A stretch of 59,132 bases of DNA, counting the filler, from Sphacelaria rigidula (Eukaryota): NCBI GenBank assembly GCA_964200075.2. It is 6 parts of 6 records of this genome, joined end to end, with 100 filler letters (N's around TTAATTAATTAA, not from the genome) between each part and the next. Parts side by side here need not be neighbours in the genome. Positions count along the whole stretch, not along the records: positions 19,747 to 29,518 come from CAXNAA020007795.1; 5 more parts are not named here. One strand, written 5' to 3'. Position numbers and translations under genes: made by a program. The notes beneath the pieces were generated by a model, which saw nothing but the letters and a program-made list of their open reading frames with translations, was not told where the DNA came from and searched no databases. This document shows, piece by piece, positions 10,351 to 37,660 of this stretch. The stretch's first letter is position 1. Each line of letters opens with the position of its first letter.

Positions 10351-10414
10351 AATGTTCACTTGTATCGAGACAAAAAAATAATCGGCCTTCTGTCGCTCAC
10401 ATCGCAACAAAGGT

Positions 10415-12222: not shown

Positions 12223-12275
12223 AAGTGGTCAGAGTTTATACTGTGCAGACAGTACATTTAACTTGTTGATGTTTT

Positions 12276-13812: not shown

Positions 13813-13834
13813 TGGGTGGTGTTGAGTAAACACC
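13813..13834 (-). promoter_or_regulatory. Histone mRNA 3' stem-loop
   Basis: GGTGTT-TACTC-AACACC followed by ACCCA, ~77 nt after the H1 stop codon. Confidence 0.7.
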
Positions 13835-13910
13835 AGGGTTGGATGACCGCCAGCTGGGCGCGTTGGGGATGGGAGATGGGGATGAATATGTCCGCAGTCA
13901 CGGTGGAAGC

Positions 13911-16727: not shown

Positions 16728-16939
16728 CAACATACCCAATCCGGTAGGGTAGTGAGGTCATAGCCAAGTGATGCACTACACCCAGGTATTGCTGAGAGTG
16801 CTTACCCAATATTTTTGTAGTATTTGAGGCCGAACCGGATCTGCCCAAAACTCAGGTAGAGTACTGAGACCATACCCAGGTGATGCTCTGTACCTAGGTA
16901 CTGCTGAGGGTGCTCACCTAAAAATTGGGTGGAGTATTT

Positions 16940-19129
16940 CAGGGGTCTACACGTTACACGTGCCACAGCGTTACACGTTACGATTTGGCCGAAACATAAC
17001 GTGAACGTTAAAAAACAATTACGTGATGAACGTAATGTTTACGTAACGTTGGAATTTCAAATGAAACGTTCACTTAGCGTTAAATTTTTCAACGTGACGT
17101 ACGTGAACGTTTCATTACCCAAACGTTGAAATCATGTCATATGAAACTTTCCATGCAACGTGTAACGGCTATTACACGTTAAACGTGCATTAGACGTTAC
17201 ACGTTACACGCAACGTTATATGTTACGTTACACGTTACATGAAACGTCATGAACACGCCACATGCAGTGGTGAATCTTCAAGTTTGCAATGAATTAAAAA
17301 ATCCTGGAAGATGGTGCTTATGGTATAGGTATGGTACTATTGCAAGAATTTCGCGCTCTCCCCACTACACGTCACAACGGCCGGCCGCACATCATAATCA
17401 TAACATCATGATTATCTCGACCACATTCAAGGCTACTTCTCATGTGTAAAGAACACGTTGTCAGAAAAGACGTTTCTCAACAGTGCGATTTACTACATGA
17501 TTCTTCAAACTAGCCTTCCTCACGTAATCGACGCGGTGTCAAAATTGGAAATGCAGTGCTCGTCGTTTTTCATGACGTGTGCAGGTATAATTTCGAATTT
17601 TGGGGCGCGCGAAATAGACGCAGCACTCTGCTGTCGTGTCGTGGTGTACGGTCCGTACTGACTGTCTGTACTACAGTTGTGATACATCGGCTGAGCAATA
17701 CATGGTGGACTGCGTGACGAAGACGATCAATAAGAACACCGCCTTGCTGTACTGACTGTAGGAGTGACGGTTGCGCTTTTTACTGCACGGTAGTACTTGA
17801 CTGAAAGGAAAGCACGGACAAGAGTACATACAACAACAGTACTGTATTGTATGCCTTGGCTGTAAACTTTTTCGTGAGATTTAGAGTAGAGCGCTGATTG
17901 AAAGTGGCTCTATTCTTTCGCTCCAACTCCGCCAATTATTCAATCCGTGTGCGCTTTTTCTCCCCTTCATCACTGGCTTGTGCTTAAAGCTAGACGTCGA
18001 TATCCTACTCAAGGATATCAAGGGCCTCAGTGGCAAGGTACTACAGGAAGCATATTGGGCCTCGTGGAGGGGCATTTCGGAACTGAAACGGGTAATTCAG
18101 TCATTGATCGCCTTTCACTCTCAATCGTATCCTCTACTCCCAGTCTCACAAAAGCCTTGTTTGTAGTGACGGCTTGGCTGCCATCATCACTACTGTCGCT
18201 GGTGATCGCGGGCAGTCAGCGTTTTGCTTCATGTCCTTCGCTCGCCAGTAGCGTGATGGCCCTTACCCCTTTCCCCCATGAGAACAAACTCGGCAGGGTC
18301 CATGACGAGTGCTGTTAGACACCCTGTGTGTAGGTTGGTTGAACAGCTATGTACCTCAGTTCATGTCTGCATGCCGCGTGTTGCAAACAGCACTCGAATG
18401 CAGTACAGACTGCCCAAGCACCCAAGCCCCGTAGACACTACAGCAGTAGGACTACTGCTTATACTGTGGTGTTGTGTGTACGATCAGTGCAATCCTGTCT
18501 CTACAAGTCTTGGGTGCATGGGCAGTCTGTACTGCATCACGAGTACTGTTCGCATCACGCTGCATGCACAGACCTGAAATGCGAGCTACAATACTGTCTG
18601 TGCAAACTACACGCAGTGTTTGTACAGCACTCGTCATCGACCCTGCCCTGTGCCGTTCTCATGGGGTAAAGAGCTACCATGATACTGGCGAGCAAAAGGA
18701 CAATGAAGTAACGTGCTGACTACCCACGAGCACCAGCGACAGCAGTGGTGATGGTAGCCAAGCCACCCATGGCTGCTGTCGTGGGCTGGAGGGTGTGTTG
18801 GCGTGCGGCGGGATTTTAAACGCGTTTTTTGATCACACAAGAAGTGGGTTATAAGAAAACGCACTGTTTTAGAGTGTTCTTCGTGCATGAGAACTAGCCG
18901 ACGAGTCACCGTCAGCGTCACGTACACGGTAACATCACGCGTTGAACGACACGTTACAACGCCTCTAACACTGGTGAATGAGTTGCGACATGCACAGAAT
19001 GAAACGCTACATTCGAACGCTACACGTGTCGAACTAACGTGATATTAGACGTTACACGTGACATTGAAACGTTTCATATTACGTTACATGTAATGAAACG
19101 TAACGTGGACGTGAACGTGTAGACCGCTG
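16940..19129. mobile_element. Non-autonomous hAT element (2.19 kb) with ACGTTAC subterminal repeats
   Basis: TIR CAGGGGTCTACACGTT / AACGTGTAGACCGCTG; TSD GAGTATTT/GAGTTTTT. Confidence 0.85.
17864..18161. mobile_element. MITE family B, nested in 16940-19129
   Basis: Colinear with 6799-7098. Confidence 0.8.
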
Positions 19130-19416
19130 GAGTTTTTGAGATCGTACACAACCTGCTCCAAATTTGGGTGAAGTATTTGAGTCTGTACCTAATCTATGGA
19201 ATCTATTCAATCTACCCAAACCTTGGGTAGAAAACATTCTCAGGTGTTACCCGAGTATTTAAAACATAACCTACCCGACCTGCCTTCAAAGAACTGACAC
19301 TCTGGACAATAGAGACAATAATAGTTCATTGCTTGAGCAATAGACATCGGGACAAATATATCGATATATATTATCGAACACGATAGATGTTGAAACACAT
19401 CTTTGATATGTATTGC

Positions 19417-19570
19417 AAGGGGCAACAGAGGTCGCCCAGGAGGGTCAACACAAGAGGTTTTTTCCTAATGTGTTTGTAGTACTCCATCTTTCTTCTGCGG
19501 TGCTTGCCTTTATTTTTCATCACGAGAGGGGTTCAGCAGCACCTTTTCTTCGTCGACAGTTGAGTCGAAT
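19417..19570 (-). mobile_element. SINE family 1 internal fragment
   Basis: Matches 12355-12500. Confidence 0.7.
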
Positions 19571-20233
19571 ATACTGCTGTCGCGTATTCAACGAGACGGG
19601 GATAGCACAAACATATAAAATGATGCTAGGAGAGGACGGGGGGTATNNNNNNNNNNNNNNNNNNNNNNNNNNNNNNNNNNNNNNNNNNNNTTAATTAATT
19701 AANNNNNNNNNNNNNNNNNNNNNNNNNNNNNNNNNNNNNNNNNNNNTAAAAAAGAAAAAAAAAAAAAAAAAAAAAAACGACACCCATTAAAAAAGCCGGG
19801 GTGGGGGGGGGGGGGGGGGGGGGAGGCGCTCCGTGTCCAAATTTTCTCTCGACAAGCCCTTGAAAAAATAAAACAAAAAACACAAGAAAAATCATGACAA
19901 TTTTCGAAAAATTGCCCTCCGGGGCGGGAAGGGGGGGGCTCCGTGTCCGAAAATTTGATCTCTTCAGACCCTTGCACACATCTGTAATTTTCGCCTCTTC
20001 ACTACTGCTTCACTACTGGAGTGAGAACAATTCGGCGGCAGCCTCGCGCTGTCGCACTCTGTTGGCAACAAACGCAAAAATCTTGCTACAATCTTGTCAG
20101 CGAGAACACAACATTCAGCATTACCAAAAACTGTCCACATGCATTGGTACGTACGTGCGAGACGATTGGCTATCTCATTTGTGCTGACGCAGCTCAGCAA
20201 AATAAGGTGCATGATGGTACATGCCCATGCAAT

Positions 20234-20608
20234 CTAAACTTGTAAGTTGCAGCAGGATCCACGCGGCATGCCTTCGCTCGTTGGGTCCAATAAGGCGTTT
20301 GAACTACGAGGAAGATATTCCTTGCGCAGTTCAAACTTCCTCCGACGTAGCGCCAACACACGATGGGTGAAGGTTTGCGAGGCGTCAATCATGCATGGAG
20401 GGCGCAGCTACATCAATATTCCATAGAAAGCCGTTGTTGGGCCATCACTGCAACGTGTGAAGTGGAAAATATGCAATGCTGGCGTAAACTATAGACCGCA
20501 CGCACCGGGTAGCCTTGAACATGGTGACACCCACCGCATGAAAACCCCCGCACAACAGAGTCGTCGTTTAGCCTTGGTTGAGCCAGAGCCCAACAGAGTA
20601 TATGCAAC
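20234..20608 (-). CDS. Possible last two exons (20608-20506, 20407-20234) of an unidentified gene
   Basis: Phase-compatible CAG/GTGCGT and TAG sites give LHILCWALAQ...CGGCHHVQGYP|LRPPCMIDASQ...CCNLQV*; no recognisable family. Confidence 0.3.
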
Positions 20609-23600
20609 CTGCGTTTCAAACGACGTCGAGAATGAATGTGTTCGCGAAAGCTGGTTTCTTCTTTGTAGAATCCGAGGTAAATGTCATTCATGTTTTCCCT
20701 ACAACGTACAATCTGCGCACCCCAAGCTTAAATATGTATATATATATAAATATACACACACAAACAAACGGGATAGGTATTCTGGAGTATCATGCATAGG
20801 AACATGGCAAACTGGACCGAGGTACTGGACAAACCCGAATGGCAAAGCCCTCACAGTGCGAGCTTCTCAAGAAACTAGATGCACCTGTGGATGTGGTCCA
20901 GTCGGCGCGAGCGAAATGAGCCGAGGGGCGCCAAGTACTGTAGAAGAAATGAGTGAATATTGAGTCAAGAAAACGTCATGTGCCTTCACCCCGTGTACCT
21001 GTCCTGGGCCGACCTAAAGCTTGAATTTGGAAGTGTGCACTGCTCAGCGGTTCGAGCTGTGTAGCTCGTGATACTGTGTAAGTGAACAGTCAACGTCTAC
21101 TGCCGGGTATGCACGTCAACCCGTGGTGTTCCACTCGTAGGGCGAAGCTCCACGTTAATTCTGTGGTCAGAACCCAAATAAGGCGTGGTACAATACTCAT
21201 ACAGTCCTGCTATGCTGCATGGACGTGGTGAAGAGAAATTTCTGCCTCATGGACAGGGTACACTGACGAGAAACGTCTATATCTTGATCTCGTAACATCT
21301 TTGTATGCGTCGACTGTGTCCGACCCCTCAATTCAGCCCAGAGTATCTTACCGGTGTACAAGGCAACACATACAGAACTATACAGTAGTGCAGATTCTCA
21401 TTTTGATTATGGTATCTCCGGATACAAGCTGTGCAAGAGGGGCAGTCGGATCCCAGCTGAGAGATCTATCAGAGTCGCCGAAAACAAGCAGACAGCACGT
21501 AGACTGCAGACAAGACTGACGAAACGTATCCAAACGGAAAAGTTAGAGGATGACAATTTTGGGACGTACAGGCGAACGAAGATGAATAAAGATCGTGTGA
21601 AGGACGTCTGGTTACGTAATAATAGATTCAACAGTAGTGTACAGCACATACACCTGAGTGAAATAAACATAGCATTGAGGATTGGAACCTGCATATCAAG
21701 ATACATAATCCCGCCGTCAACAACGTTTATGAACGATTGAGGCACGCCACGCGCCTGGCCCAAAGTCGCAGCCATGATCAAACGAGAAGAAATGCCATCC
21801 TGGTCGAATCAACAAACACCATCTACGGGTCTTGTATATTGACACGCAAATGTGGGTACGAATAAGATCAAATGGGATATGATCTACGCTACAGTCCACG
21901 CCTGTGCTAAGATAGAGAGCATGGTTCCTGTAGTAGCTACGTGGCGGCATTCTTGCTGCAAATCGGCTTATGCGGCGTCTATTACTAGCGGATTTTACTT
22001 CCAGCGGTACCGCTGCGTTTCTATCTTCAGGAAACGAGGAGGGAATGTCTTGCTGCGGCAGCGGCAACGTGCGAATCGCTGCGCTTGGAATGAGGCAAGG
22101 TGAGGGTACATATGCAAGGGTTGTTGCCTAGTGCTGCGGCTTTACCAGTACGGTACAGCATAGTACAGTGGATTATGCGCCTACATTCATCAACTCATCT
22201 CCCATGTCACTGGCACAGAGAGTTGTGCCAGCCTTCTGAGCATTGTAGCGATTCGCCGACACCATGGTGTAGTCCGTTCGTTGAGGTAACCATTGCGCTC
22301 AGAGGGCTTGCTCGCCGCGCACGTGACATGACCAAGCACAACCTCGCCAAGGTACGGAGATCCTATTCCATGTCAATAATGTTTTCTAACTTGTCTACAT
22401 CTCAGTATGACGTTGATATGATCCTGGTCGTGCGGGTATCTGCAATGCTGACAGGCAACTGGAGATCTCCATACGGATGATAGCACCCCCTATGACAAGT
22501 CCCGTAGTCTCGTTTTTTTCTCAACGTGCGGCTCGCGACGAGGTCGTCAGAATCCCTCATCAAAATCTTTCGATCAAGGGTACAACATATGTTGATACAC
22601 AACCTAATCGAGGTTTCAAACGCATCACCCACGGGGTGTCATACCCCGTCACATTTTTGTGGAGCGAAGCAGTCGGGTCGACAGGTAGAAGCATGGTCAT
22701 TTCCGGCGACGTCTCATCATTATTAGATCGGATATCGCGATACCCGTTGGATATCTGTTTTTCGACAAACAGAATTTGAGCACAGTTGGTTGCAACGGCG
22801 GTTGGTATTCCTTGTGCATTCATTTTGTATCTGTAATACCCGTACACGTGTGTAAATTTCACCCCGACATGAATAACACCCCCGGGCGATATTGCAATGT
22901 AAGCCGCCCTCGGAAAGGAATCGACATCTGTTGACTCGAGGTGAAGGCCAAAGTAAAAAAAATCATATGTAGCAAGTGGAATCTACCGTAGCAACCGTGC
23001 GCTCGGCGCTATCGCGCCGCCGATATTCCGTGACACTCGATCAATCGAGAATCAAATCACTGGCTTTGGCTTCGTCGTTTTCTTGACGCCAAAAAGTTTG
23101 CTACGAGCAAAGTGAGTAGTGTGAAAGGTGCTGAAGTAATCCGTGCTTATTGGGAGTGGGACTGCTTCTTGTGGGTTCTATCGTATTCATCGAATGAAGA
23201 TTTCGTTGTTTTTATGTGTGAGTAGTTCAAGTGTGAAGATATTGAACAAAAAGTACATCTACAGTACGGGCATATACACAAGAAGTATGCATGATACACG
23301 CAGTACACCAAAACATTTGAAGACGTCGTCATAGATGGGTACTAAGCACGTTAGTGCGACATTTTTTATATAAAAAACGGTGTGTGCTGTGCTGTGGTGG
23401 CTATGTTGTTTAATGGAGAGAGGGGCACATTGTCTCGTGGACATGATACGGAGAGAAATTTCTTCGTGTCCCGAGAACCGCTGCCAGACGTTGCTTTTCA
23501 AACGATCTGATATGTCTCGAATATAATGACGGAAGCACAACGAATTATGTATGCATTTTCTGTGATCCCGGGTCATGGTCATGCCGAATCATCACATTAT

Positions 23601-23960
23601 CCAGGGCGATCGTAAGGCACATGACCAGTGCTACACCGGATGTGCTCCGGAAGGAAGACGGCAACAGCCGCGCGACCATGCTCGCGTCTCTTCCCCCGGG
23701 GAATACTGTAGGAAGACTGCCGCACTCATCGTCTCACTTGAATATTTCGTTCTCAAGCTCCATACCGGCACCATATTCATCAAGCCTCAGAAGACAGGTG
23801 TTCGTCTCTGTCCTGCTAACAACGATATGGGACAATACTGGGAAATGGTAGGACAACATATACTCCCCATGGTGCTCCTATATCTCAGAATGCAGTAGAC
23901 GCATGTTTGACCGCAACCTCGCCATGATTGTGATTCATACCCTTTTTCGCGTTCACGCAG

Positions 23961-26900
23961 GCACTTCACGGCAAAACGCGTCTACGATAGTCTACGTAAT
24001 GTTTCTGACGCGGAAAATGCGGGGAAGCGAGTGGTTGTCGGCATGTCTGGGGGGGTTGACTCGTCAGTCGCGGCGATGCTAATGAAGCAAATGGTGAGTG
24101 AGTAAGTGAGCAAGCAGAGGCTGTATTTTGTGGGTGCGCTCATGGGTACGGTCAAAATCAGGGAGGAGGTTGTATCTTGTCAGGAGTCAATGCTGGATGT
24201 TGGGAGGTGCGGGGAGGCTTGGGGATGGTTGAGAATGTGTCGCGTGCCTGACACGGTATTGGGTCCGCTATATTGGGCGTGCCAAAAACGACGCAACAGG
24301 GGGGATGATGATGTTGACGGTGCTTTTTGGTTGGCCAACGTATACCGATCGCCCCAGCGGCTCAGTTGGTTGCTTCGAAACCTTCTGACGGTTGGGACGT
24401 GGGTTCGAATCCCGGTGAAGTCACACGATCTGGGATTTTTTTTCTCACATGATACGCCCAACAGTGGAGAGCGACTATGGCGTGGGGACACATTGTCCGA
24501 CTTCACGGTCGACAAGGGAAAGGGACGACTGAACCCTCTTTTCCTCGCGATAAAGAGAAATTCGAGCACCGCAGAAGGATGGTGAAGTGCCGAAACAAAT
24601 TGAAGAACAAAAACTCCTGTGTGAGCTCGGTTGACGCACACACATATATCGAAAGATATCGATTGACGTTCAGAACAGATGGGATGACAACACAACACCG
24701 TAAGCATACCAAACTAAGGGTTTGATGTGTTTTTGCTTGCTCTCTTTTCTTGGCGGCGGCGGGGGGGGGGGGCGAACCACAACGCGACAAGGGTTATGAT
24801 GTCGTCGGTGTGTTCATGCGAAATTGGGATCGAGATGACGAAGAGGGCCAGGAGGCGTGCTCCGCGGATAGCGATCTGCAGGATGCGCGGAAGGTTGGCG
24901 AGCTCTTGGGTATCCCCGTAGAGACGGTGAGTGAGTTTTTTTTTTTGCCCAGTTTGATCACGCATTTGTCCCGGAAGAGCGTCCCGGTCGGTTTGCATGT
25001 ATTCTCATTTTTTCCTGGTTGTGCAATCTGGTTGGTTACCATAACAATAGTTCCCCCGCACCATCGTTCGTGTTTACGTGTCTCCGAGACGGTGAGTGGA
25101 ATTATTTTTCATTTTTTGCCATTTTTTTCACGCATGTTCCGGAAGAGCGTCCCGGTTTGCATGTATTCTCACTTTTTTCTGGTTGTGCGATCTGGTTGGT
25201 TTCCATAACGATAGTTCCTCCGCACCATTGTTCGTGTTTACGTGTCGTGTCAAGTTACTTCCTGTGTATTGGCTATTGGACCAGATGGTCTCTTCTCCCT
25301 CATCGGATGAACTTCAATCTCTAGGGTGTGTGCCATGACTTGGGTCGATTTAGACGATCGTGTCATTCCAGACAGCTGGGGGCGACTTGCCCCAGGGATA
25401 TCGATATCAACTACAGGCGGCTCGGAAAACCACAGTCGACGGTTGTGGATTCTATGACTGCGTTTTGTCTGAGCTTATGATGGATTGGTTGTCGTATATC
25501 GCCGGATCCGCTGGAAATCCGACCGTGGTCACTGGATAGACATACCCAAGGAAAATGAAAAACAAAAATACTGGCGATAACAAAGGAAGCTCGAGAAAGA
25601 CAAGAAATGGAGAGAGAAAGAGAGAGAGAGTAAAGTGAAAAGCAAGAAACGGCACAAGAGCAGCAAAACAAGAACTAGACAAAAGGAGAGGGAGGAGGGA
25701 AGAGTACCCGTCTGTTTTGCTTGCTTTGGTCGTTTGACCATTTGCCACGCATCCCTTTCGACACGGGGCGCGACGGAGCAAAAGGGAGGGGGAGGGGGGA
25801 GGGAGGGGCGTACTCATTTGTTGCTTGCCTTAATCGTGTGGCCATTGACCACGCATCCCTTTCGAGACGGAGCAAGGGAGAGGGGGGGGGCAGGAAAGGA
25901 AAGGAAAACGAGAAACAAATAACGCCAAGATAGACTTAGAGTACCATTATTGCTACATGCAAAAGAGGAATGGTCGACTCCTGCCGCATGGCGTCAGGTG
26001 AGGAGGCCTTTCAATATCAAACCATATATAACGAGAATGCCGGCGATACTTGTACATAATGTATTTTGACGTGTGTAGTAGCCTGCCGTGGTACAGTGAC
26101 TCGCAAGCCCCATCTTTGTCCCCTGGGGACGGTTCCTGCAGCGATCGAGCTTGAGCTTTCAGAACTCCTCAACCCTGTTGAATTCGATGAGGAGGCGTGT
26201 TTCCGAAGCTGTTGAATTTGACTTTGACTAGCCTTTGCCGATACAGCTGTCCGCATTTCTTTTGCCTTCGTCGCGCACTGTTTAGCCTCCCGCCCCCCGC
26301 CCCACCGATCTCGAACACAGACGAACTTCTCTCGAGAATACTGGACGGAAGTATTCGCCCCGTCCTTAGAAGAAATCACGCAGGTGAGGCCGAATTAGCG
26401 TGGCAAAAATTCTGATTTATTTCTGTTCGTACCGTTGTTTCAACAGAAGTCATGTGGTGGGTGTCTGACTAGTGCAGTTCTGGTGAACGTACATCGATCA
26501 CTCATACGTTGGGGGGATTGTCTAGACATGATGATGGTGTAGCAATGGGGGTGAGATGCTTTTTTCGAATTGATGGAGGCGAGCGCGGTTTCGGTAGGCC
26601 CTTCGTATCGCCTGTACTTCGCTACGTCATCCTCCAACGCCTGCTCGGACGAACTTTGCCACGTTAAAGTGGCGATCGCGCTGTCATTCGTGATGCGTTC
26701 AGTGCACAACACCTAATGGGCATAAAACTGCTGTTTAATTTTTTCCCTTCTTTCTCGTCTTGTCTTTGACCCCTCCCCGTCCTCGGGATGAGCCCGTAGC
26801 TCAAAAAAGGATCAAACAAGTGTTTCTCCCTGGGTACGTGCTAGACATTTTGGCGTTGTGAATTTCATCAGCAGGCCCGTACCTCGTCGACACTCGTCAA

Positions 26901-29175
26901 ATAAAAATCTCCTTGCCACGCTATTGCTACGCGCATCCTCACGTTCCCAACGGTAAAATTCGGAAATTTCTCGGGAAAAAAAACAACGTGTCTCCCGGGA
27001 TCAGAACCGTCGACCTTCCGCCCTCACCAGTTCACGATATAATGTTTTCATCTTTACCACCGCGCCGCGGTGCTGTGCGTGGTGAAAGCTACATGCGACT
27101 GCTCCCTGTCCTTGCGCGCCTCCTCCTATCCTTTATTACAGTGTAGTCATCACGTTGTCTGGCTGCACTCTTTTCGGAATAACTGCACGGTTCGGACGAA
27201 TCATCGCCGCTTCGAATCACTAAATGTACAATTTTTCGGAGATATGTACGGATAAAACCGTGGTTTTACGGATTGAAGACTGTAGCGTCAGAACAAAAAA
27301 TGAACTTGAAAAAATGTGGGACACAAAAAAGTAACCGGTACGGGACTCGATCCGCGCACGTTCCGCTTCGAACGGATTCATATTACGGCTCCTGCTACGG
27401 ATTTACAGCGTAATCCGTGGCGAAATTTTGACGGATTTTAAACCGCGGACTTTTCCTTCAAATGGCTCCTCAGCGAACATGCTGGTTCGATTCCTAGTCA
27501 TCATCAGCTGTGTTATTTCCCCTTCTTTGCGTCAAACTTCTTTTTCTGTTGAATTCAGAGCAAAAAGAAGAAAAAAAAACGTGATTTCCTCCGTACACAC
27601 CCCTGCAACTTTTAAGGCGTGATTCCTCGAGAAAGAGAAAAACGTTGACCGCTGCGGTCAAGAAGATCCCCATGCAATTTTTGCGCCATTTCACGTGCCC
27701 GGGCCGAGTGTACTTGGGTTGCAGCGCTGCAGTCAAAGCCTGAGGATTGATTCGTCCGGTACGACTCATTCATACTAAAATCAAGTAATTACCAGACGAA
27801 CCATTTGATTCGTCCGACCCTTGAATAACTGCGCACCTCTCAGAGCACATGTCGTGCGTAGCTGCATGAGCGAGATTTTGTTGTTGCTCGAGAAAACGCA
27901 GACACTGACCACATCAGACATACAGCAGTCTACCTTCTGCCCCCATCTTTTGTTGGACGGTACCTCACCCGGTCCCGTCGCCCCGCCACATCCACCTGAC
28001 AGGGACGAACTCCCAATTTCGACGTGTGGTGCAACCGTTTCATCAAATTCGACGCGTTCAGGAAGTACGCCATGGATGTCCTTCGAGCAGACCTTGTCGC
28101 TACCGGTAAGAGTTTTATCTCTGCAACATCCGCCATATCTAGGAGACTCCTGGTCATCTTGTGCAGCAAGCCATGGTTGACTGCAATCCCGAAAGCTCGT
28201 TTTATACACGGTAAGGAAGTAGGTTATGCGTGCCGTGAGCCATATGCAGCCGGCCTTGTGGCCACTCGTGCATATTTCCAAGTAGTACCGTTAGGCGTGA
28301 CTACAGTTTGATGTCGTGAGGGGGGGAAAGTTTCGAAAATCGCCCCTTCATGACTAATCACGATGTTTCTGCAGTGAGGGTAGCTTCCAATCGAGACTGC
28401 ACTACTGGTTCATGACTATTTGTCGTGCTCTTAAAGCCCCTCACGTGCTGCCAGAGCATCAGCACCGCAAAGCATGTACCTCTACGGGTATCACGCATGA
28501 GCTGAAGAAAGGTGACGCTTCTTCCCTATCTGGTACTGTGTTACTGAAGATCATAAGAAGCCTTTTTCACGAGAACGAAAACATTGCGTGCCGTTGCTGT
28601 TAATCTCGAAATCTCTCCCATCTCCGCGCAAAGGAGATGATCGTACTACGTAGTATTTGCATGGTGAGACATACACTCATGAGGTAGTGTATAAGTCGTG
28701 GCTGTCTCTGAAAGTTGCGTTATCAGAAAATGAAGCAACCCATTGTAGACTGTCATCCATATGCGAAATAACCAGCGCGCTTCGGGCCGAATAATGTTAG
28801 CAGGATGCAGCTCACCCTTCGTGCGACTCGGCGAACACACCACAGCGCTTCGCGCTCGGTGATTGATGGCGAGCCTGGTCCGGCAAAAATCCAGCGTGCT
28901 CCGTCCCGACTTTGTAGGGATGCGAGGTCAACGGCCAAATGACCACGGCATGCAAGATCATGAGTAACCCCCCCCCACCCCCCCCCCACTGTGGGTACAT
29001 TCGTGCATGATCCACCCGTGCCGCCCTTGTGGGTAATTTCACTACAGGACACTACGCCAGGATTGGACCTGGGCCCTCGGGTGGATGGGAAACACCGGTT
29101 TTGCTGTCGGGGGAGGATACAGACAAGGATCAGTCCTATTTCCTTTGCGCAGTGCCCAGCTCGGCGCTTGCTAAC
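23961..29175 (+). CDS. mnmA: tRNA-specific 2-thiouridylase MnmA/TRMU, partial; exons 23961-24093, 24792-24926, 26321-26383, 28003-28105, 29048-29175
   Basis: Spliced protein KRVVVGMSGGVDSSVAAMLMKQM|GYDVVGVFMRNWD..CSADSDLQDARKV..LGIP..|TNFSREYWTEVF..|GRTPNFDVWCNRFIKF..ATG|HYAR..DTDKDQSYFL: PP-loop SGGVDS, CN.FIKF, ATGHYA and KDQSYFL motifs; all introns GT-AG and phase-consistent. First exon uncertain; the gene continues past the contig end. Confidence 0.95.
24351..24705 (+). mobile_element. tRNA-derived SINE family 1 in an mnmA intron
   Basis: GCCCCAGCGGCTCAGTTGG..CCTTCTGA..GGTTCGAATCCC head plus shared body. Confidence 0.85.
24921..25245 (+). repeat. ~165-bp tandem duplication including the 5' splice site
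   Basis: GAGACG|GTGAGT at 24921 repeated at 25086, followed by near-identical intron sequence. Confidence 0.85.
25480..25700 (-). mobile_element. RTE-like LINE 3' UTR fragment
   Basis: Reverse complement: pyrimidine-rich tract, then TTGGGTATGTCTATCCAGTGACCACGG...CGACAACCAATCC. Confidence 0.55.
25704..25874 (-). mobile_element. Two tandem module-C mini retro-tails (25704-25780, 25809-25874)
   Basis: Both match the 3' end of LINE 55254-59070; separated and flanked by GGGAG-rich tracts. Confidence 0.8.
26975..27072 (-). mobile_element. Second tRNA-like Pol III head (SINE family 2 or tRNA pseudogene)
   Basis: Reverse complement GGCGCGGTGGTAA (A-box-like) ... GGTTCTGATCCC (B-box-like), then T8. 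Confidence 0.4.
27186..27823. mobile_element. hAT-type MITE family E (638 bp) in an mnmA intron
   Basis: CACGGTTCGGACGAATC / GATTCGTCCGACCCTTG; perfect TSD AATAACTG. Confidence 0.88.
28625..28967 (+). mobile_element. Non-coding retroelement family D (~350 bp) with C-tract tail
   Basis: Homologous to 43881-44225, 49030-49261, 49362-49437, 29460-29510 and 59083-59132; 3' end resembles module C; C-run at 28968-28988. Confidence 0.75.
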
Positions 29176-29382
29176 GTAAGTTGTGAAGCGAAAGATATGT
29201 CCATTGATACGAGCACATTACGATAATGTCCATGTTGTACCTAGTGAGAAAGTCAGACTTGCTGGAAGTAACGTAGGTGACGTCGAAAACGGTTATCATC
29301 CACTCACCTCCTCCCATTCCCCCCGCACGCACGCACGCGCGCCCCCCTGACGATCCTGGAGCCATGCTGCGATAGGGAGGGG

Positions 29383-29441
29383 CGTACTCATTTTTTGCTT
29401 GCCTCAGCCGTTTGACCATTGGCCACCCATCCCTTTCGAGA
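29383..29441 (-). mobile_element. Module-C mini retro-tail
   Basis: Matches the LINE 3' end; GGGAGGGG flank. Confidence 0.75.
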
Positions 29442-29674
29442 TTGACCCCCCCCCTATCTCAGCCTGGTCCGGCGAGAACCCGGCGTGCTCCGTCCCGGCT
29501 TTGTAGGGGCGGACCCCCNNNNNNNNNNNNNNNNNNNNNNNNNNNNNNNNNNNNNNNNNNNNTTAATTAATTAANNNNNNNNNNNNNNNNNNNNNNNNNN
29601 NNNNNNNNNNNNNNNNNNGGAAGCCACAAGATTTTTGCGGTCGGCGGTTGATGGCGTGGGTCTCAAATGCAACG

Positions 29675-31595
29675 ACAAGTGGTGGGTCATAGAGCACTCT
29701 TGTTCATCGTGACACATATCTCGTCCCAGCTTGTAACGCATGACCTTCTCACATGGGAATTCTCAAAAGATATCCTTGCTGGCATGTGTGTAACAGAGAA
29801 CAGTAGCGGTGACGGGAACACCGCCCTGTTTTTTCAACTACATGCGCTGCAGCGCACAGAAGCGCTTCCTGTCCAAAAGCGAGGCAAAGAGAAATCGATA
29901 TTTGCATTGGTAAGCTCCACAGACAAGAGGAGACGAGAACCCTTCGCACCTTGGTGTTCTTTGGGGTGCTGTGCAGCAATAACCTGCCTACCAGCACATG
30001 CGAAATGGGGTCAATGCTGGTAACATCCATGATGCCAGTCTCTCGAGCGATTGGGAATCGCCGAGCGAGGACACACGAAGGACACGGGCGAGGAGCTTCC
30101 CCTCTGCCGTTACTCCTCTGGTGGTATCGTCATCGACACGCGTGTACACCGCATTCGTTCGGTGCACCTAGCCACAACAGCTTAACTGCTACAGATTTGG
30201 GGAGGGGAGAGATGGTTTCGCTTGGTGTAGCTGTTTCGCGTCATCCCTGCAAAAACGTCATGCCACTTCAACCCCATTTTAGTGTTCAACCCCAAAACAT
30301 AGAATTGGCTTTTTATATAACGTGAAAATAGGCGCTGTCTTGCGGCGGTTGCCTGACGACGGTTACTACCCTGTCATTGCAGGAGCCTGACGACGTTTTC
30401 CACCGGTCAATGCAGGAAACAGGCGTTTCGAATATTGTACGTCCTCATGAAATGCGGGCGCATATATCTGCATTCGAGTATGTGCACTTGCCCCCACAAC
30501 CGCTGCGAGACAGTACGTTTTGATGACCATCTCCACGTAGAGCACACATTCCACACGTGAAGGAGTTCTGCTCCATCCTGGGATACAAATTCGTTGCCGT
30601 AGTATATTAGATCTTACCCCTACTGAGGCGATCACAAATCTGCATGCTATGCTTCGTTTTGGAGCAGCCGAGTCTAATTTTGGGGTTGAACACTCAAGTG
30701 GGGTTCAACCCCCATTCGAAAAATCGAGAATTCACGCCAAAGAGGATCACCACGGGAAGGAATTTTCGCAAGCAGCGTTTCTGTTGCAGATATGCCGGTG
30801 TGGTTAGGTGCACCTGATGAATGCCGTGCACACGCGTGTTGATGACAATATTACCAGAGGATCAACGGCGGAGAGGAAGCTCCTCGCCGGTGTCATTCAT
30901 GTGTCCTCGTTCGTCGATTCCTAATCGTTACAGATATTGGCATCATGTTATAGTACCAGCACATACCCAGGTTGCCATGTGTGAGCAGGCGGCTTATTAT
31001 AGCACAGCCGCGGAAACAAGATCGCGGGATGCCCCAGCTGTCGTTTCCTGTCTGTGGCGCTGACCAATACAAATATCAATTTCTCCCTGCCTCTCTACTT
31101 GGACAGGAAGTGCCTCTGTGCGCAGTAGAACACGTCGTCGAAAAGCAGGGTGACGTTCCCGTCACCGCTACGGTTCTTTTACACACACATGCGAGCAAGG
31201 ACGGCTGCGCCCTCGCGGCAAGATCTAACAATCGGAAGCTGGGGGGCGTTATTGCAGTCGTTGAGTTTACCCGACGTCTGAGAAACAAGGACAGCAGACT
31301 GTCTGCCACATCCCAGTTGGAGGGGTGGATGTATGAGAGACCAAACACTCGTGTAGACCTTCTTGGTATGCGGAGTGGAAACAGATACCTCGTGCGGGGG
31401 ACTTAACTCTTGCTGGCGCGACCGAAATGGGGGCTGAGATCCTGTAATTGAGCTTCCTGCTGTCAACCGGTCGCATGCATGGTGTGTGTGTCGGGGGGAC
31501 GTCTGTTGCAAAAAATTGTTATGTGAGGAGAGTCATCCTAAGCGAAGGCGAGATGTGGTTAGAAACAGAGGTGTCCTATGATTAACCACCTGCCA
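29675..31595. repeat. Large diverged inverted repeat (arms ~29675-30300 and ~30675-31595)
   Basis: e.g. CCTTGCTGGCATGTGTGTAACAGAGAACAGTAGCGGTGACGGGAAC vs its inverse at 31155-31200; the right arm has ~295 bp extra at 31203-31497. Confidence 0.8.
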
Positions 31596-31770
31596 TTGCA
31601 TTCCTAACCCGCGCCGACAAGCGCTGACAAGAAAGGTTTTGCCTGAGAAGAGCGTTCGAGCAACGACAGGAGTAGGCAGTCTGTTCAGCCCGGAATGTTA
31701 CTGCAATTTCGTCACTGCATGCACTGGTTGTAGCAATTTAATTGCACAAGCCTTGTGAGGGAGGAGGTTG

Positions 31771-32157
31771 ATCATATGAGAACCTTAATCGGTTAAATCA
31801 AAACCATGGCCACAAGCTGAGGGGAAGTGCAAGAGTTGGGTTCGGTCAGCCGTTCGAGGATACCTACAACAAGTTGTTTCACCAAACGTTTCTGGAATTT
31901 GCAAAGAGCGATCAGTATAGAACCGAGCTGAAGTGGGCCCGTTTATGTTCGAAATTGAATTTCTCTCATAGAAAAGGCTTTGCGTTTGGAAAAAGGTGAG
32001 TTCCTTCCAGAGGAAACTCTTTCGGGGCCCAGCAATGTTTCTTGGAGCTTGCAAAAACTGTGGCATTGTTTTATATACCTGGCAGAAGGGGGGAGTGCGC
32101 GTTCTGATAGCTTGCGACAGCCGTTTTGATTTAACCGATTAAGATTCTCATATGATT
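31771..32157. mobile_element. MITE (~387 bp)
   Basis: ~35-bp TIR ATCATATGAGAA(C/T)CTTAATCGGTTAAATCAAAAC. Confidence 0.75.
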
Positions 32158-32477
32158 AGAAACGCCTTTGTAAAAACAGGGTTTTGCTCATCGAAAGCCT
32201 CCAGGCCGCAACAGATAGCCGTCACCGCCAGGGGGAAGTCCCCTCGGTCATCTCCAGTATTTATTCCGTCACCGATGCTGGTGTTGTGCAAGCAGAAAGT
32301 TCTGGTTCATGAGTTAGACAGAGCAAGATGAATTTTGTCTCCTATCGACACTTTTTCTTCCTCTTTTTGAAACATTCGATCTTCTCGTCGTCCTATGAAG
32401 TAGAATGATGCATTGGTGGATTGATCATCGTACATTGACTGATTCGCCACGAATAGAGCTGTGGACATAGCACACAC

Positions 32478-32785
32478 AGCGATGTTTTCGTGAGATCGAG
32501 AGGAAAGCGTTGATTTAGGGTGGCTTCTATATTTCGCTTGAAGTTGACCATTTTTCATTCTGGGTGTGCTTCTCATTTTTTGCTTGTAACACTGGTGTGT
32601 GCTCAGAGATACACGTCGATATCCTACTCACGGATATCAAGGGCTTCACTGGCAAGCTGCAACATATAGATTGCCCTGTGTCCAGGGTACTTCCAATTTC
32701 ATTTTTTTCGGTGTCTGTGACGTTGCGGTCTTGGATTGCGACGGTAAAGCCGGAGCGGTCTCGGCTGGGTCCTTCTACTCTCAAA
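32478..32785. mobile_element. MITE family B, diverged copy
   Basis: TTTTCGTGAGAT start, CACGTCGATATCCTACTCACGGATATCAAGGGC core, CTACTCTCAA end. Confidence 0.65.
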
Positions 32786-33729
32786 TGAAGGTCTGCCCCA
32801 CGCACCCGGGGTATGGTGATGTGCGGTCACACGGAAGCGTAAAGTTGTATTGAGGCATCAGTCGTGCTCGTGTTATCGCCGTCGCCCTACACTCACAAGC
32901 GCCCGCAGCAAGCCGGCGCTGAGACGCGAGCCGTTTCCCGAAAAATTCCCGCTAGGTCTTTCCGCACTAGTCCCAGCCACTACCATTCCTGTTTTCAAGT
33001 ACACGTACACGACTTGCTTCCTGGTATGCCATAGACTCTTATTTGCAAATTGCTGTTTCTCAGGCAGACAGGAGACAGTGTCAAGCGTGAAGCAGCTGCA
33101 CGCTGGGCCGAGGGGCCCCATATCGGGAAATGACGGCACCATCACCCTCTTCAGGTCGCCCAAACCTCATTCTGGGGCCATAGGCGGAGAAGGGGGGCGA
33201 CCCGTGGGTACCCTATTTTAGGAGGGGGGGTACCCCCCTGATCGATGGATAATGGCGATAGTAGTTGCTGTGTGTGTGCGCTTCGGTCTTCAGAGCACAG
33301 ATCTATATACAAGTACGGTACATAAAATATATGCTAATTGCTGCTGTGTTCGACACTGCGTACCAACCGCAGCGTGACGCGTTTCGGCGGTACTACCTGC
33401 TCACTGCACAGCGGTAGAGTGCAGGGTGACAAAACACACCGCAGGACATCACATCCTTAGCCTATCCCTGTCCTGCATTGATTCCGCGTTGTTCTATGCA
33501 GTTCGCCACATCATGAACACAGCCGCTTGTACCTGCAGCCAACGTGTACGCAGGATATCACCCCTCGCTACGCGCTATATCGCTACGCCACATTTTGTAA
33601 AGCTGTCCGTGTTGCAGCTGCAGCGTGTGTTTGCCCCAGGTGGCGTACGCAGGAGTGAAATGCCGTCTCCGTCGCTGTAATGGCTGTCTGTATTTCGGGC
33701 GAAGCTGTATGGTAACACAGCTGCTGCTG

Positions 33730-33805
33730 GTGCGCCCACATATACCGAAAGGTGGAGACCGGCGCCCAGAATATATGGGACGACAACACCCACAACACAC
33801 AGACC
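33730..33805 (+). mobile_element. SINE family 1, 3' tail fragment
   Basis: Matches 1022-1100. Confidence 0.6.
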
Positions 33806-34469
33806 GTGCGCAGTACACTTCCAATATCGTGTTCGTACTGACGGTAGAAATCTTTTGTTCACGGTCTGATACGTTTCCATGTATAATACAGAGTCAGGTA
33901 CATCTCCACCTATATTGCAATGGAGGGTCTGGTACATTTCCACATGTAAGTGTATGTATTGTATATTTCCGCATGTAAATGTATATAATGTTGCTCAGTA
34001 ATATGGTGAAAAAAAATCCGCAACATCTGGGGTAACTGCAGGTGAGGCAATAGCCGAAATACCCACCTGGAAACTCTGCTCCAATGCACTCTAAGTTGAT
34101 ATCGCTAGAAGGACGCTACCATAACCACCTTGCCGGTTGCCAGACGGTCAGACGTAGAACCCGCTAGCATTGTAGTGGATGTTGCCCCCTTGTCGGGTAC
34201 GCTTTGGAGCATGATACTAGATGTAAACCATCCTTGTACATGGGCACCAAACGCTGGGCGTTCGTACTCAAGACTCCGATTTGGAGGACGATACTATGTA
34301 GGGGGCAGCAACTGCTGAGTGTCCAGGTGCCACTTCGAGCAAGATGCGTTTGGTTTCTGTTTGAGAAAGTTTCCCCCAAAACACGAAATCAATAGGGGTT
34401 TTAGAGTGGAAATACCTAGCAAAAAAAAGTCGCAAATATTGAGTCGCAAAAATCAAGTCGCGAAAACCA

Positions 34470-34711
34470 TTTATTTCTGTGCTTTGCTTGTGTTGAATTT
34501 TTATCAAGTTTTTTTGTCACGACTTAGTCTGCTATGTCGTTCTGTTCGACCCCTTTCTTTTCTTTTTTCCTGTTCCTATTTTTTTCTGTTTTTTTTGTTT
34601 TCCTTAGAGCGTGTTCGAATTTTTTTTTTTCTTGAGTACGTCTATCATGAGACCAAGGCTGGACCCCTGGGGGGTCGGTCAAAGTGCGACAATCAATCAA
34701 TCAATCAATCA
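34470..34711 (+). mobile_element. 5'-truncated RTE-like LINE tail with (CAAT)5 and TSD
   Basis: TSD AAAACCA at 34463-34469 and 34712-34718; (CAAT)n tail. Confidence 0.75.
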
Positions 34712-37358
34712 AAAACCAAGTCGCAACAATGGAGTTGCAAAAATGGAGTCGCAAAAAAGCGGTCAGTCGAATTTTTACTCGCAGCAGAAGCCAAATTCAT
34801 TTTGTGAAATCGGAAAAGCGTATCGGGCCTCGAGGGAGGGCATTTTGGAAGTGAAAATATTAATTCGTTAGTTGACCGCTCCTTACTCTGAATCGTATCG
34901 TCTACTCTCAATCTCACGAAAAACTGTTACACACGTTCTCGAGGTAATTTGTTGGAATAACACCGCTAAAGATCACTACCGTAGGGAAAAAGGAAAAAAT
35001 GAAGGTGAAAGCGCGAACATAGTGAACGAAAAGCAGAAGAGGGAAGGGAGAATAGGATGAGAGAATGTAGGGTAGTATCTAGAAACAGTCCCCCAGAAAA
35101 TTTCGAAAATACGATATACGGAAAATGACCGGCCTCTTGTCATATGGCTTCAGGTAAAGAGGTGTACAAAAACAGAACTATACAGAGCACAACAAAACAG
35201 GACAGAACAAGACTGTTGAAACAGGTTCCGACTCAGATATCTAAGCACCACACACCACTCAAGTATCCAAAGCGGCGCTGTTTGGGTAGAACCCGCGAGC
35301 TCGTCGGGGGTGAAATACCAACACTGACAGGTAAATTTTTACAATCTCGCATGTGCTCGGAGTACCGAGCGCGGACCCTTGCGACGGGCCAGCCACTCTG
35401 GGTGTAATGGTTCAATCCGGCAAGTAAGCAGCCGCTTCAAATCATGTGGCTTAGAGGGAATACGCTCAAGAAGACGCGTTGAATTATCCGAATGAACCAA
35501 CGAGCAAAGCACATTGCGGACGCACAAGCACACATACCGAACAATGCCAGCCATGCCAGCCATGCCAAGCAACTTGACATAAATATGACGGCAACATCAC
35601 GGTGCTCATGAGGATATGTCTACAACGCAGCACGGTAGCGGAGAGAGAAAACTCCCGCTTGACTGTACTCTCTATCCGTGCCAACGCATGGCCACACACG
35701 ACATATAAATGACACACGAGGTACTGAAATATAGACAAGGTAACACAGCCAATACCCGATCGATGGTTCGTGATAATTTTATGTAGAATTCATGGAGTTT
35801 TCGCATGATCATATCTGGGGGCTGCACCTGCACCTGAGGGGCATTGCTGGCGGCAGAGGAAGCACGGGATTTGTTCCCATCGTGATTGATTTTACTCCAG
35901 CGTTGAGGTTACCCGTTCAAATAACCGTTTGTCCGCACTCCGGAGAAACATTGGGCGCGCATGCAAAACTCGATTTGCCCACCCGTACGAGAAAATACCT
36001 TGGGAGCTTTACGATCACACTGTGTGTAATTAATGTAGATTCCAAGCCCACGCGCATGATTTGAGGATCGTGTTCGGGGGCCGAATTTCCGCTTCTTCTC
36101 TGCCACCAGGTATGGACGAAATACTCATCGCTAATTTTATTCCGGGTGATGGTGTTCGCATACTCTGACAATGAAACACAAGGCACTCTTCTTGAGTCAT
36201 GCCATAATAAACCGCTCTGATACGGGGGTAAGCGTCCACACAACTCAAGTGCGTGAACAGCAGCCAGCACCTTGGTTCAGGCAGATAACAGTCGTATAGA
36301 ACACGTCTTGATTATCTCCCTTCACCCTGTTTACTCACTCAGATTCTAATCAACCTCATTCAGTCACACAATAACACACGCTCAATCTCTCCCGCTCACT
36401 ACCACACACACGGACTCACCACATACACTTATGCAAACCCCCGGGGCAAGGCAGACAGATGGCACCTAGAACCTGACCGGACTGACGGACGGTGGGCGTC
36501 AGGCAACTCAGTTTCCCGGACTACACACGTAACCGTACTCGCATAGCCTACGTCATTAGACATTATTCCTCTGATTGGTTACCTATTCCTCCGCAATCGC
36601 AACATGGTTGATGCCACTTGTGCCGCACTAAATCCTACATCAATCTTGTTCATGACAGAGCGTGAGCATATCCAATTAGCCCCCCTGTTCACGGCTCAGT
36701 CATTGACTTGAAAACCTATACAGTTGAAAATCGGAATGGAAAGATAACAACCCCTCACAAAAATGAAAGTATCTTAAGTCATGCTCGAACTCCACAAATG
36801 GTTCATATTCAATTATGCCACGGTAGGGGTCGCTCATACGAGCCCGAATGTTTCTCATGAAGGGGCTCCTCAAGTCAGGAGCTGCCAAGAACATGGGCCA
36901 GTACATTCCCGTTTTAATATCCATTCAAAACGTCCCTAGCACATTGGAACGCTACAATCATGGCGTGCTCTCACATACTCCAGGACTCGTTTTTTTGGAT
37001 GAGATGAAGGGCTCTTGACAATTCAAACTTGACATAAATACTTTGTGTACCGCTTCCGTGATATGACTCTCTCCTGCATTGTTTCTCAACGCGAGCAACC
37101 CCCTCCGAACCTATTAGAAGTGAAATGTCTAAGAAATTAAGCATCATGCAGGATACACCGGATTCATGTTGTATGACTACAGCTCCAAATTCCAGCACCT
37201 GCTGATACGTAATGATTAACCCGTCTCTTTCGTAGCAACAAGTTCAGATTACTTCGTACGACAAAAACCCTGGCAAATGTCCGGTGAGGACACGACGTAG
37301 GCATGCCATGGCACACATTCATGTGAATTTAAAACGGCAGTCAGTGATGTCTAGAGCA

Positions 37359-37660
37359 AACAACGTTTTCGTGAGATTGAGATTAGAGCACTGGTTGAGA
37401 GTGGCTTTGATCACTCGCTTTAGCTTGGACAAATTTTCAGTCCGTGTGGGCTTTTCTTTGCCTCTATCTATTATTGCGTGAGCTCACAGCTACTCGTCGA
37501 TATTCTACTCAGGGATATTAAGGGCCCTAGTGGCAAGTTACGAGAGAAAGCATGTCGGGCATCGTGGAGCGGTATTTCGGAACTGAAATGATTCATTTAC
37601 TAATTTACCGCTTTTCACTCTCAATGGTATCCTCGACTCTCATTTTCACGAAACCACTGT
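37359..37660. mobile_element. MITE family B
   Basis: Colinear with 6799-7098. Confidence 0.8.

Follow-up and report, generated by a model that had tools for sequence, protein, structure and literature searches.

In three genes of the brown alga Sphacelaria rigidula, repeats ending in a run of C lie inside introns, in the orientation of the host gene and shortly before the 3' splice site, which raises the question of whether such elements are led to intron ends or have come to lie there by accident. The window, i.e. the whole stretch of 59,132 nucleotides analysed here (assembly GCA_964200075.2), is made up of six pieces of 9,771-9,773 nt each, joined by N44-TTAATTAATTAA-N44 linkers. These pieces are not necessarily genomic neighbours, a point overlooked in an earlier note on this DNA, and five of the 12 piece ends fall within C-tailed repeats of the two kinds described below, i.e. 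module C and family D.

C-tailed elements in the window

Module C represents the extreme 3' terminus, some 60-100 nt long, of a non-LTR retrotransposon that is itself autonomous. A LINE with this 3' end was recovered from two public contigs, L001 and L005. The latter (5,259 nt) carries a 1,382-aa ORF at 113-4261(-), in which an Exo_endo_phos domain at residues 193-415 (E 8e-11) is followed by RVT_1 at residues 763-1012 (E 7e-32), and no second ORF of at least 150 aa was found on the LINE strand; this single EN-RT ORF was seen in a public contig with the shared 3' end, outside the window. L001 holds a second copy of the LINE (RVT_1, E 5e-33), and of the 20 ORFs of at least 25 aa that overlap positions 1-690 downstream of it, none was recognisable on inspection. 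In both contigs only 5 nt separate the stop codon from the C-run, which is C13 in L005, and C8-C12 tails stand behind the window copies. Across seven module-C copies, identity to the L005 LINE 3' end ranges over 81-98.6 %. The recovery of an autonomous EN-RT LINE with the identical type of 3' end thus bears out the earlier proposal that these repeats are retroelements. Scans with short motifs of the element returned no locus in viral contigs, two in metagenome contigs (one of them, L002, unrelated) and one in genome contigs; the MAG with the last of these held no further element copy. The LINE is probably of the RTE-X type as annotated in Ectocarpus, an assignment made by matching descriptions and not by an RT tree.

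Family D is a non-autonomous element of ~390 nt that has its 3' end in common with the LINE. Its copies in mnmA and in MuiA are 77 % identical to each other over 360 nt (blastn, alignment). When compared with the LINE 3' end, the last 50-65 nt of D copies show 72-85 % identity: the last 65 nt of the mnmA copy are 84.6 % identical to L005, and the MuiA copy reaches 81.2 % over 48 nt, while blastn of family D against L003 gave 77.9 % over 86 nt. Family D was rejected as a SINE in the strict sense, i.e. with a tRNA, 5S or 7SL head and a Pol III promoter: ARAGORN found no tRNA in the window, and Rfam gave no match there at gathering score, the sole sub-threshold match being a chance-level snoRNA (E 1.1). 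Its shared 3' end makes it a LINE-dependent non-autonomous element, or a SINE in the loose sense.

These repeats are very abundant, with 13 copies per 58.6 kb of window, and most of the LINE copies are shortened to 60-100 nt. Ten copies lie in mnmA, MuiA/DUF4139 or a membrane-protein gene, four in sense and six in antisense. Besides the three sense copies near acceptors, which are treated further below, mnmA contains two 5'-truncated LINE 3' ends in tandem (25717-25756 and 25787-25874, within 25690-25890, - strand), each with a C-rich tail and antisense within one intron, another antisense LINE 3' end at 29362-29445 (-), and a 5'-truncated D-like copy in sense at 29455-29518 (+) that runs off the end of its piece. 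Antisense to MuiA are a young 5'-truncated LINE 3' end in the middle of an intron (42997-43075, +; 98.6 % identity to the L005 LINE) and two D-like tandem partners, both upstream of the MuiA exon 48726-48586, one at 48921-49132 (+), including a C12 tail, the other at 49141-49261 (+), cut by the piece end. Three further copies, i.e. a D-like fragment at the start of piece 6 (49372-49437, -), a 99 nt LINE 3' end with 93.9 % identity to L005 (55239-55340, -) and a LINE 3' end fragment at the end of the window (59074-59132, -), have no host gene assigned, since Pfam gave no gene among 115 ORFs in 47.9-59.1 kb. In a DNA run, bins of the element reached thousands of times the single-copy depth, a figure of summed contig depths and not of copy number.

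Insertion at C-runs

The elements insert at existing C-runs, on the strand that bears the run, and duplicate it. The young copy at 42997-43075 has an intact target-site duplication (TSD), with C8-ACTTCGG on one side and C12-ACTTCGG on the other, and the copy at 25787-25874 has Cn-TCTCCCTT at either flank. A third case is the D-like copy at 29455, where C9-TATCTC, adjoining the neighbouring LINE 3' end, stands just before the element as a matching 5' junction. In all three, i.e. two C-run-led TSDs and one C-run 5' junction, the run is on the element's own strand; element and target thus share a strand, and the target sets the orientation. The targets documented in this way are homopolymer runs of C8-C9, and copies are arranged in tandem at 25690-25890 and 48921-49261. 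The earlier claim of a C-tract landing pad renewed by each insertion is therefore supported as far as duplication of the C-run is concerned (42997 and 25787, with the 5' junction at 29455). Its other half, which equated the landing pad with the polypyrimidine tract of introns, did not find the same backing: none of the three copies near acceptors has a TSD that could be made out, one of them being cut by a piece end and the two D copies being old.

Three sense copies upstream of intron acceptors

On the + strand, two mnmA exons were identified by Pfam PF03054 and by alignment with MnmA from the PDB, i.e. 28003-28105 (GRTPN...LVATG, with the donor G|GTAAGA) and 29048-29175 (GHYAR...), which the acceptor AG at 29046-29047 immediately precedes. 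The PDB alignment of both exon edges defines a GT..AG intron of 942 nt at 28106-29047. It contains a family D copy in sense at 28596-28967 (+), whose 5' end may be either 28596 or 28625, followed by a C9-A-C10 tail at 28968-28987 that ends 58 nt before the AG; from the end of the body (28967) to the exon start there are 80 nt. Pfam found no mnmA exon among 51 ORFs between 24925 and 28003. Reads were placed on 19747-29518, with four sequencing runs guessed to be RNA and none recorded as such; among the joints listed, two GT..AG joints belonging to mnmA 5' exons were present in two guessed-RNA runs and absent from two other runs, while neither the joint at 29047 nor one from an empty allele appeared among them.

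The MuiA/DUF4139 gene, on the - strand, was resolved via NCBIfam TIGR02231 and then by tblastn, which mapped six colinear exons with nine representatives; a word-based homologue search with a 48-aa ORF gave no match, and Pfam found no further DUF4139 exons. The exon after the occupied intron (43716-43801, -) is supported by Pfam DUF4139 (E 0.0037), by tblastn with the nine representatives and by the spliced reading, for joining 44903-44827 to 43801-43716 in silico yields the '...H|STSISN.KKVPVTCV...' of the homologues. The occupied intron is accordingly 44826-43802 (1025 nt). In it, the second family D copy with its tail lies in sense at 43847-44232 (-; 5' end 44232 or 44214), the body ending at 43881 and the C-rich tail (43880-43847) leaving 43 nt to the AG (43803-43802).

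In the membrane-protein gene, also on the - strand, homology of the exon to eight brown-alga proteins (from Laminaria, Ectocarpus, Scytosiphon and other brown algae) starts exactly at 'SWLVTQ', right after the AG at 9669-9668. The LINE 3' end with its C10 tail (9699-9773, -) is in sense upstream of this last exon, and 62 nt of it match the 3' end of the L005 LINE with 98.4 % identity. It ends at 9712, with the C10 run at 9711-9702, and the tail lies ~30-32 nt before the AG; the 5' side is lost at the piece boundary, and the piece contains only 105 nt of the host intron. The observation of the earlier note that three C-tailed copies sit near acceptors, sense to their hosts, thus stands at these coordinates, with the acceptors confirmed by homology. 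The in-gene mapping agrees with it as well on the copies at 25704-25874, 29383, 42996 and 49030, which had been called antisense and are found in that orientation, away from acceptors.

Acceptor proximity and C content of intron ends

All three evaluable sense copies end at ~30-58 nt from the AG, as against none of the six antisense copies. Under a null in which ten copies are placed uniformly and in random orientation over the 14,124 intron nt and 11 acceptors of the three genes in the window, the probability of at least three sense copies with the tail within 60 nt of the AG is 0.0015, rising to 0.0057 within 100 nt and 0.017 within 150 nt. These P values are nominal, because the distance cut-off was picked after the data had been seen (n=3). 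Three of ten in-gene copies fit the proposed splice-site targeting, for this window only and against a post hoc uniform null.

C-rich sequence is itself unevenly placed. The sense 100-nt acceptor zone, estimated at ~3.4 % of all 15-mer windows, holds 58 of the 604 15-mers with at least 8 C (9.6 %) and 24 of the 234 with at least 9 C (10.3 %), i.e. moderately C-rich 15-mers are ~3-fold enriched in sense near acceptors, and targeting could therefore account for the pattern. At higher thresholds, seven of 118 15-mers with at least 10 C and none of 55 with at least 11 C fall in acceptor zones. Upstream of five unoccupied acceptors the C content is 23, 26, 30, 32 and 42 %, the last being that of the 100 nt preceding the acceptor at 28002, against a background of 24-25 %. 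At 24791, an acceptor supported by RNA, there is no pyrimidine tract, and a G12 run stands 19 nt upstream. For Ectocarpus introns, a classical 3' polypyrimidine tract is reported (PMC3787667). No report of an acceptor-proximal sense bias of such elements was found in the open-access papers searched. Taken together, the data are suggestive of a preference of C-tailed elements for intron ends.

Origin of the pattern

The reading we favour, at slightly less than an even chance, is that the acceptor-proximal sense copies of the RTE-X-type LINE and of family D are a by-product of a target preference for C-runs. In target-primed reverse transcription, nicking of the bottom strand would expose a poly-G end able to prime on the C-tail of the RNA, leading to insertion at the C-run and to its duplication. 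The last ~100 nt of introns would be enriched in pyrimidines, and in C, on the sense strand, so that sense-oriented targets would be on offer there. An insertion upstream of the branch point would spare the branch point, the pyrimidine tract and the AG, and for this reason copies close to acceptors could persist. The three sense copies would then be a side effect of the choice of C-runs, with no dedicated splice-site homing system. Several observations count against this reading: no TSD is discernible at the three copies, the 15-mers richest in C are absent from acceptor zones although the documented targets are homopolymers, C content before unoccupied acceptors is modest, the acceptor at 24791 has no pyrimidine tract, and the sample consists of three cases with a post hoc cut-off, one of them in a piece with 105 nt of its intron.

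Chance combined with ascertainment, i.e. a small-sample fluke in an abundant family after many patterns had been examined and with breaks falling at repeats, is somewhat unlikely in our view. In its favour, there are only three cases, the thresholds were set post hoc and P reaches 0.017 at the 150-nt cut-off; moreover, the membrane-gene intron is present in its piece for only 105 nt, five of 12 piece ends are in repeats, orientation in genes is unbiased overall (four sense, six antisense) and the bins of the element stand at thousands of times single-copy depth (again as summed contig depths, not copy number). Against this, the nominal P is 0.0015-0.006 at the observed distances, the split between three of three evaluable sense copies and none of six antisense copies runs through place and orientation together, and exactly this coupling is predicted by the C-run TSD mechanism. 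Should chance be the answer, the window would merely add one species to a described element family.

It is tempting to go further than a side effect and to speculate that the C-run needed to prime reverse transcription causes RTE-X LINEs and their derivatives to colonise C-rich intron 3' ends preferentially and in sense, renewing and lengthening the poly-C before the branch point. We regard this stronger proposal as unlikely; if true, RTE-X elements would be systematic shapers of intron 3' architecture and intron growth, and a rare case in which the chemistry of a LINE tail gives a sense, acceptor-proximal bias, contrary to what mammals show.

Retention or selection after random insertion appears improbable. 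According to this explanation, acceptor-proximal sense copies are kept while others decay or are purged: a C-tail just upstream of the branch point would be harmless or would lengthen the pyrimidine tract, and sequence beside splice signals would be protected from deletion. The age of the two D copies at acceptors, which share 77 % identity and are nearly full length all the same, speaks for it. The LINE copy in the membrane-protein gene (9703), however, is young, with 98.4 % identity to the LINE, so that long retention is unnecessary there, and protection from deletion would favour neither strand and would act equally at donors, where the copies show no such effect. That an element provided the acceptor or gave rise to the intron in the manner of introners, for which only the proximity speaks, is extremely improbable, considering that the tail-to-AG segments of 43-58 nt are unrelated between the two D-bearing introns (the acceptor therefore being host sequence), that the element fills only ~390 of 942 nt and ~386 of 1,025 nt, starting 490-590 nt past the donor, and that the exon junctions are at conserved protein positions.

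Relation to known systems

Insertion at C-runs has a mechanistic counterpart in L1 and Alu, which integrate by target-primed reverse transcription at TT/AAAA sites. As in the elements described here, the homopolymer of the tail is that of the target, the TSD begins with it, and the tails of old copies become targets, giving tandem or nested copies; the homopolymer is A in L1/Alu and C here. The A-rich targets of mammals are not tied to acceptors, and intronic L1 and Alu copies are usually described as biased towards antisense and depleted near splice sites.

Introners of micro-algae and other protists take up virtually the entire intron, whose splice sites they carry with them or generate. They resemble the present elements in being mobile, intron-associated and algal, but differ in that the element here is an insert in a pre-existing intron with a host acceptor. 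An introner identity was rejected on this point, ~40 % of each D-bearing intron being covered by the element.

The elements are not of a new kind: for Ectocarpus, a catalogue of C-tailed RTE-X LINEs, together with non-autonomous derivatives whose TSDs are C-rich, exists already (PMC12477816). The entries for RTEX-1 and RTEX-2 read 'single EN-RT ORF; (C)n 3'', with the TSD given as 'C-rich' (PMC12477816, supplementary file 1). Like our LINE, RTEX-1_Ec32 and RTEX-2_Ec32 have a brown-algal host, encode EN and RT in one ORF, end in (C)n on the 3' side and show C-rich TSDs, and they are present in thousands of copies that are mostly 5'-truncated and common in introns; they come from another species, and the likeness is drawn from their descriptions. 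RTEX-N1 (607 bp) and RTEX-N2 (188 bp) share the RTEX 3' end, the catalogue entry for RTEX-N1 noting '60 bp 3' end 83%' and that it 'can be present in tandem' (PMC12477816). Family D is like RTEX-N1_Ec32 and RTEX-N2_Ec32 in being short and non-coding, with a LINE-shared 3' end, a C tail and tandem occurrence; at ~390 nt its length differs from both (607 bp and 188 bp). PMC12477816 presents no analysis of orientation or of the distance to splice sites, the word 'orientation' having no occurrence in its main text. Brown-alga genomes are nearly half intron, with RTE-X elements as the most numerous repeats, according to the same study (PMC12477816). If the chemistry of C-tail and C-run steers insertion to the sense strand shortly before acceptors, it would partly explain how these introns grow without breaking splicing, and would provide a simple, testable link between the priming requirement of a retroelement and gene architecture.

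C-tailed copies and intron acceptors

Using blastn of a family D copy and a repeat finder, 13 C-tailed copies were detected in the window, ten of which lie inside three genes, i.e. mnmA, a MuiA/DUF4139 gene and a brown-alga membrane gene. Four of the ten are in sense: a family D copy at 28596/28625-28987 (+) and a 5'-truncated, D-like copy cut by a piece end at 29455-29518 (+), both in mnmA, a family D copy at 44232-43847 (-) in the MuiA gene, and a copy of the LINE-derived module C, also cut by a piece end, at 9773-9699 (-) in the membrane gene. The six others (25717-25756, 25787-25874, 29362-29445, 42997-43075, 48921-49132 and 49141-49261) are antisense. Around the three copies left without a detected host gene (49372-49437, 55239-55340 and 59074-59132), Pfam searches of 115 ORFs and scanned ORFs of at least 105 aa revealed no gene. 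In the three evaluable sense copies, the gap from tail to AG is 58 nt (mnmA), 43 nt (MuiA) and about 30 nt (membrane gene). The earlier note, which had reported three C-tailed copies in sense just upstream of acceptors in three genes, was therefore correct as an observation, judged by the homology-placed acceptors and the copy positions in the window.

Based on homology, all three acceptors are real. For mnmA (+ strand), three ORFs match Pfam PF03054 in colinear profile order, and alignment of solved MnmA proteins shows one exon ending in '...LVATG' and the next beginning with 'GHYAR...'; together with the donor G/GTAAGA (exon end 28105) and the acceptor ACAG/ (29044-29047), this defines an intron at 28106-29047 (942 nt). 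The upstream introns 22100-23960 and 24094-24791 show GT..AG joints in two sequencing runs guessed to be RNA, which are absent from two other runs. The latter intron ends without a pyrimidine tract and carries a G12 run (24761-24772) 19 nt upstream of its acceptor 24791, where the RNA-like joints are found, indicating that a G-run at this distance from an acceptor is tolerated. In all four runs, summed contig depth at two further mnmA intron stretches (24311-24636 and 26919-27244) is 100 to 2,000 times that of single-copy sequence, which marks them as additional high-copy repeats with no relation to families C and D.

For the MuiA gene, the Pfam DUF4139 match, presumably the basis of the original gene name, is weak (E 0.0037, 62 ORFs searched), while NCBIfam TIGR02231 matches two more of its ORFs colinearly (E 1.7e-9 and 0.025) and 189 relatives were recovered in a full HMMER search. 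With nine of these 189, tblastn placed six exons on the minus strand, i.e. 48726-48586, 45949-45797, 44906-44827, 43801-43716, 42455-42258 and 41512-41417. Joining 44903-44827 to 43801-43716 yields '...HQVVHAH/STSISNSKRVPVTCVVVD', which agrees with the homologues at each residue across the junction, and the occupied intron is 44826-43802 (1,025 nt). In the membrane gene (-), similarity to eight aligned homologues begins exactly at 'SWLVTQ', the first residues past TTTTTTATCAG/ at 9669-9668, and longer models among the homologues extend upstream with other exons.

Two arrays of ~82-nt tandem repeats, ~800 nt each (39493-40330 and 46810-47730), are mutually inverted with arms 83-93% complementary. 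Between them lie five of the six mapped MuiA exons, with one array in intron 48585-45950 and the other beyond the final exon, and their layout is similar to that of long composite inverted repeats in foldback-type transposons.

Identity of the elements

A search with a degenerate 23-nt motif of module C found a marine-metagenome contig (L001), and one with a 25-nt motif found a contig of 5,259 nt (L003/L005) wrongly binned in a bacterial MAG. The latter encodes a 1,382-aa ORF in which an AP-endonuclease domain precedes a reverse transcriptase, and the former a 5'-open copy of 1,014 aa with the reverse transcriptase. Since the stop codon precedes the C-run by 5 nt in both, module C corresponds to the C-terminal end of the coding region of an autonomous LINE. 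LINE copies of the window are 5'-truncated insertions with 81-98.6% identity to L005, those at 9703 and 42997 being young. Family D, of ~390 nt, is 72-85% identical to the LINE end over its last 50-65 nt and gave no protein-family, tRNA or Rfam match in searches of the window; its two long copies share only 77% identity and are thus old. In a DNA run, depth over the element bins reaches thousands of times the ~29-fold single-copy depth; this value sums contig depths and is no measure of copy number, but it indicates that the C-tailed family is very abundant.

By eye, a diverged piece of the LINE 3' module was seen in antisense immediately upstream of the full-length LINE (L005 4740-4800, -); it is another nested or adjacent insertion. 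Tandem repeats of ~55-65 nt, also upstream of the LINE (L005 5100-5259, -), look by eye like the window array 9991-10352, a hint that this contig derives from the same alga or a close relative of it.

Matched by description, the window elements are a new-species case of a known brown-alga system of LINE and non-autonomous partners with C tails and C-run targets. In Ectocarpus, RTEX-1_Ec32 is catalogued with 'single EN-RT ORF; (C)n 3'' and RTEX-2_Ec32 with '(C)n termini/TSD', while a 'C-rich' TSD is given for both non-autonomous families, RTEX-N1 (607 bp) and RTEX-N2 (188 bp), with RTEX-N1 annotated '60 bp 3' end 83% RTEX-1/RTEX-2' and 'can be present in tandem' (PMC12477816, supplementary file 1). 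According to the same paper, RTEX-N1 is the most abundant single family, with >6,000 copies (PMC12477816). We found no orientation or splice-site-distance analysis for C-tailed RTE-X-type elements in the open-access literature searched.

Insertion at C-runs

The earlier note had also proposed a C-rich landing pad regenerated on insertion, and this is supported by the flanks of three copies: 42997-43075 has C8-ACTTCGG upstream and C12-ACTTCGG downstream, 25787-25874, which adjoins an older copy, has a C-run plus TCTCCCTT on either side, and C9-TATCTC precedes the truncated D-like copy at 29455. At all three, the C-run is on the element's own strand, and orientation thus follows the C-run strand. 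By analogy with L1, which inserts at A-rich sites, such flanks would be expected where a nicked G-run strand primes on the C-tail of the element RNA.

Acceptor proximity and chance

With ten copies placed uniformly and in random orientation across the 14,124 intron nt and 11 acceptors of the three genes within the window, 0.24 hits are expected at ≤60 nt and P(≥3) is 0.0015, rising to 0.0057 and 0.017 when the limit is widened to ≤100 and ≤150 nt; these values are nominal, since the limit was set post hoc and one case lies in a piece that includes just 105 nt of its intron. After element masking, the sense 100-nt acceptor zone (an estimated ~3.4% of all windows) holds 58/604 (9.6%) of the 15-mers with ≥8 C and 24/234 (10.3%) of those with ≥9 C, an enrichment by which a preference for C-rich sequence would roughly triple the number of sense copies expected near acceptors, so that 3/10 would be unremarkable. 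The zone holds 7/118 15-mers with ≥10 C and 0/55 with ≥11 C, and a strict homopolymer-run requirement would not have that effect. Upstream of five unoccupied acceptors, C content is 23-42% versus a background of 24-25%. That the element itself supplies the acceptor was excluded: the tail-to-AG segments are unrelated between the two D-bearing introns, the element starts 490-590 nt past the donor, and the exons join at positions conserved in the protein. Three window loci without recognisable TSDs underlie the sense pattern near acceptors, which is nominally significant and mechanistically plausible.

Other features of the window

The six pieces (1-9773, 9874-19646, 19747-29518, 29619-39390, 39491-49261 and 49362-59132; 9,771-9,773 nt each) are joined by N44-TTAATTAATTAA-N44 linkers (9774-9873, 19647-19746, 29519-29618, 39391-39490 and 49262-49361), their order implying no genomic adjacency. 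The C-tailed family holds 5/12 piece ends (9773, 29518, 49261, 49362 and 59132), as if the underlying contigs were broken at these repeats. One sequencing run containing piece 3 carries the label 'algae metagenome'. The source organism is a brown alga: a 474-aa ORF at 8311-9732 (-) has 32 homologues, the named ones from Laminaria, Ectocarpus, Scytosiphon, Pylaiella, Choristocarpus and other brown algae. On piece 1, PF00849 (RNA pseudouridylate synthase family) matches two colinear ORFs within 5246-6626 (+; profile positions 2-48 and 48-152), which points to a further gene.

Another short repeat ending in a C-run (C21 and C8) has two copies, 19803-19860 and 19931-19975 (-), beside a long A-run at a piece start, and may be a second C-tailed family. 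A ~300-nt interspersed repeat, 61-86% identical to the reference copy, occurs in three pieces (6799-7098, 17862-18161, 32478-32664, 34816-34922 and 37359-37660).
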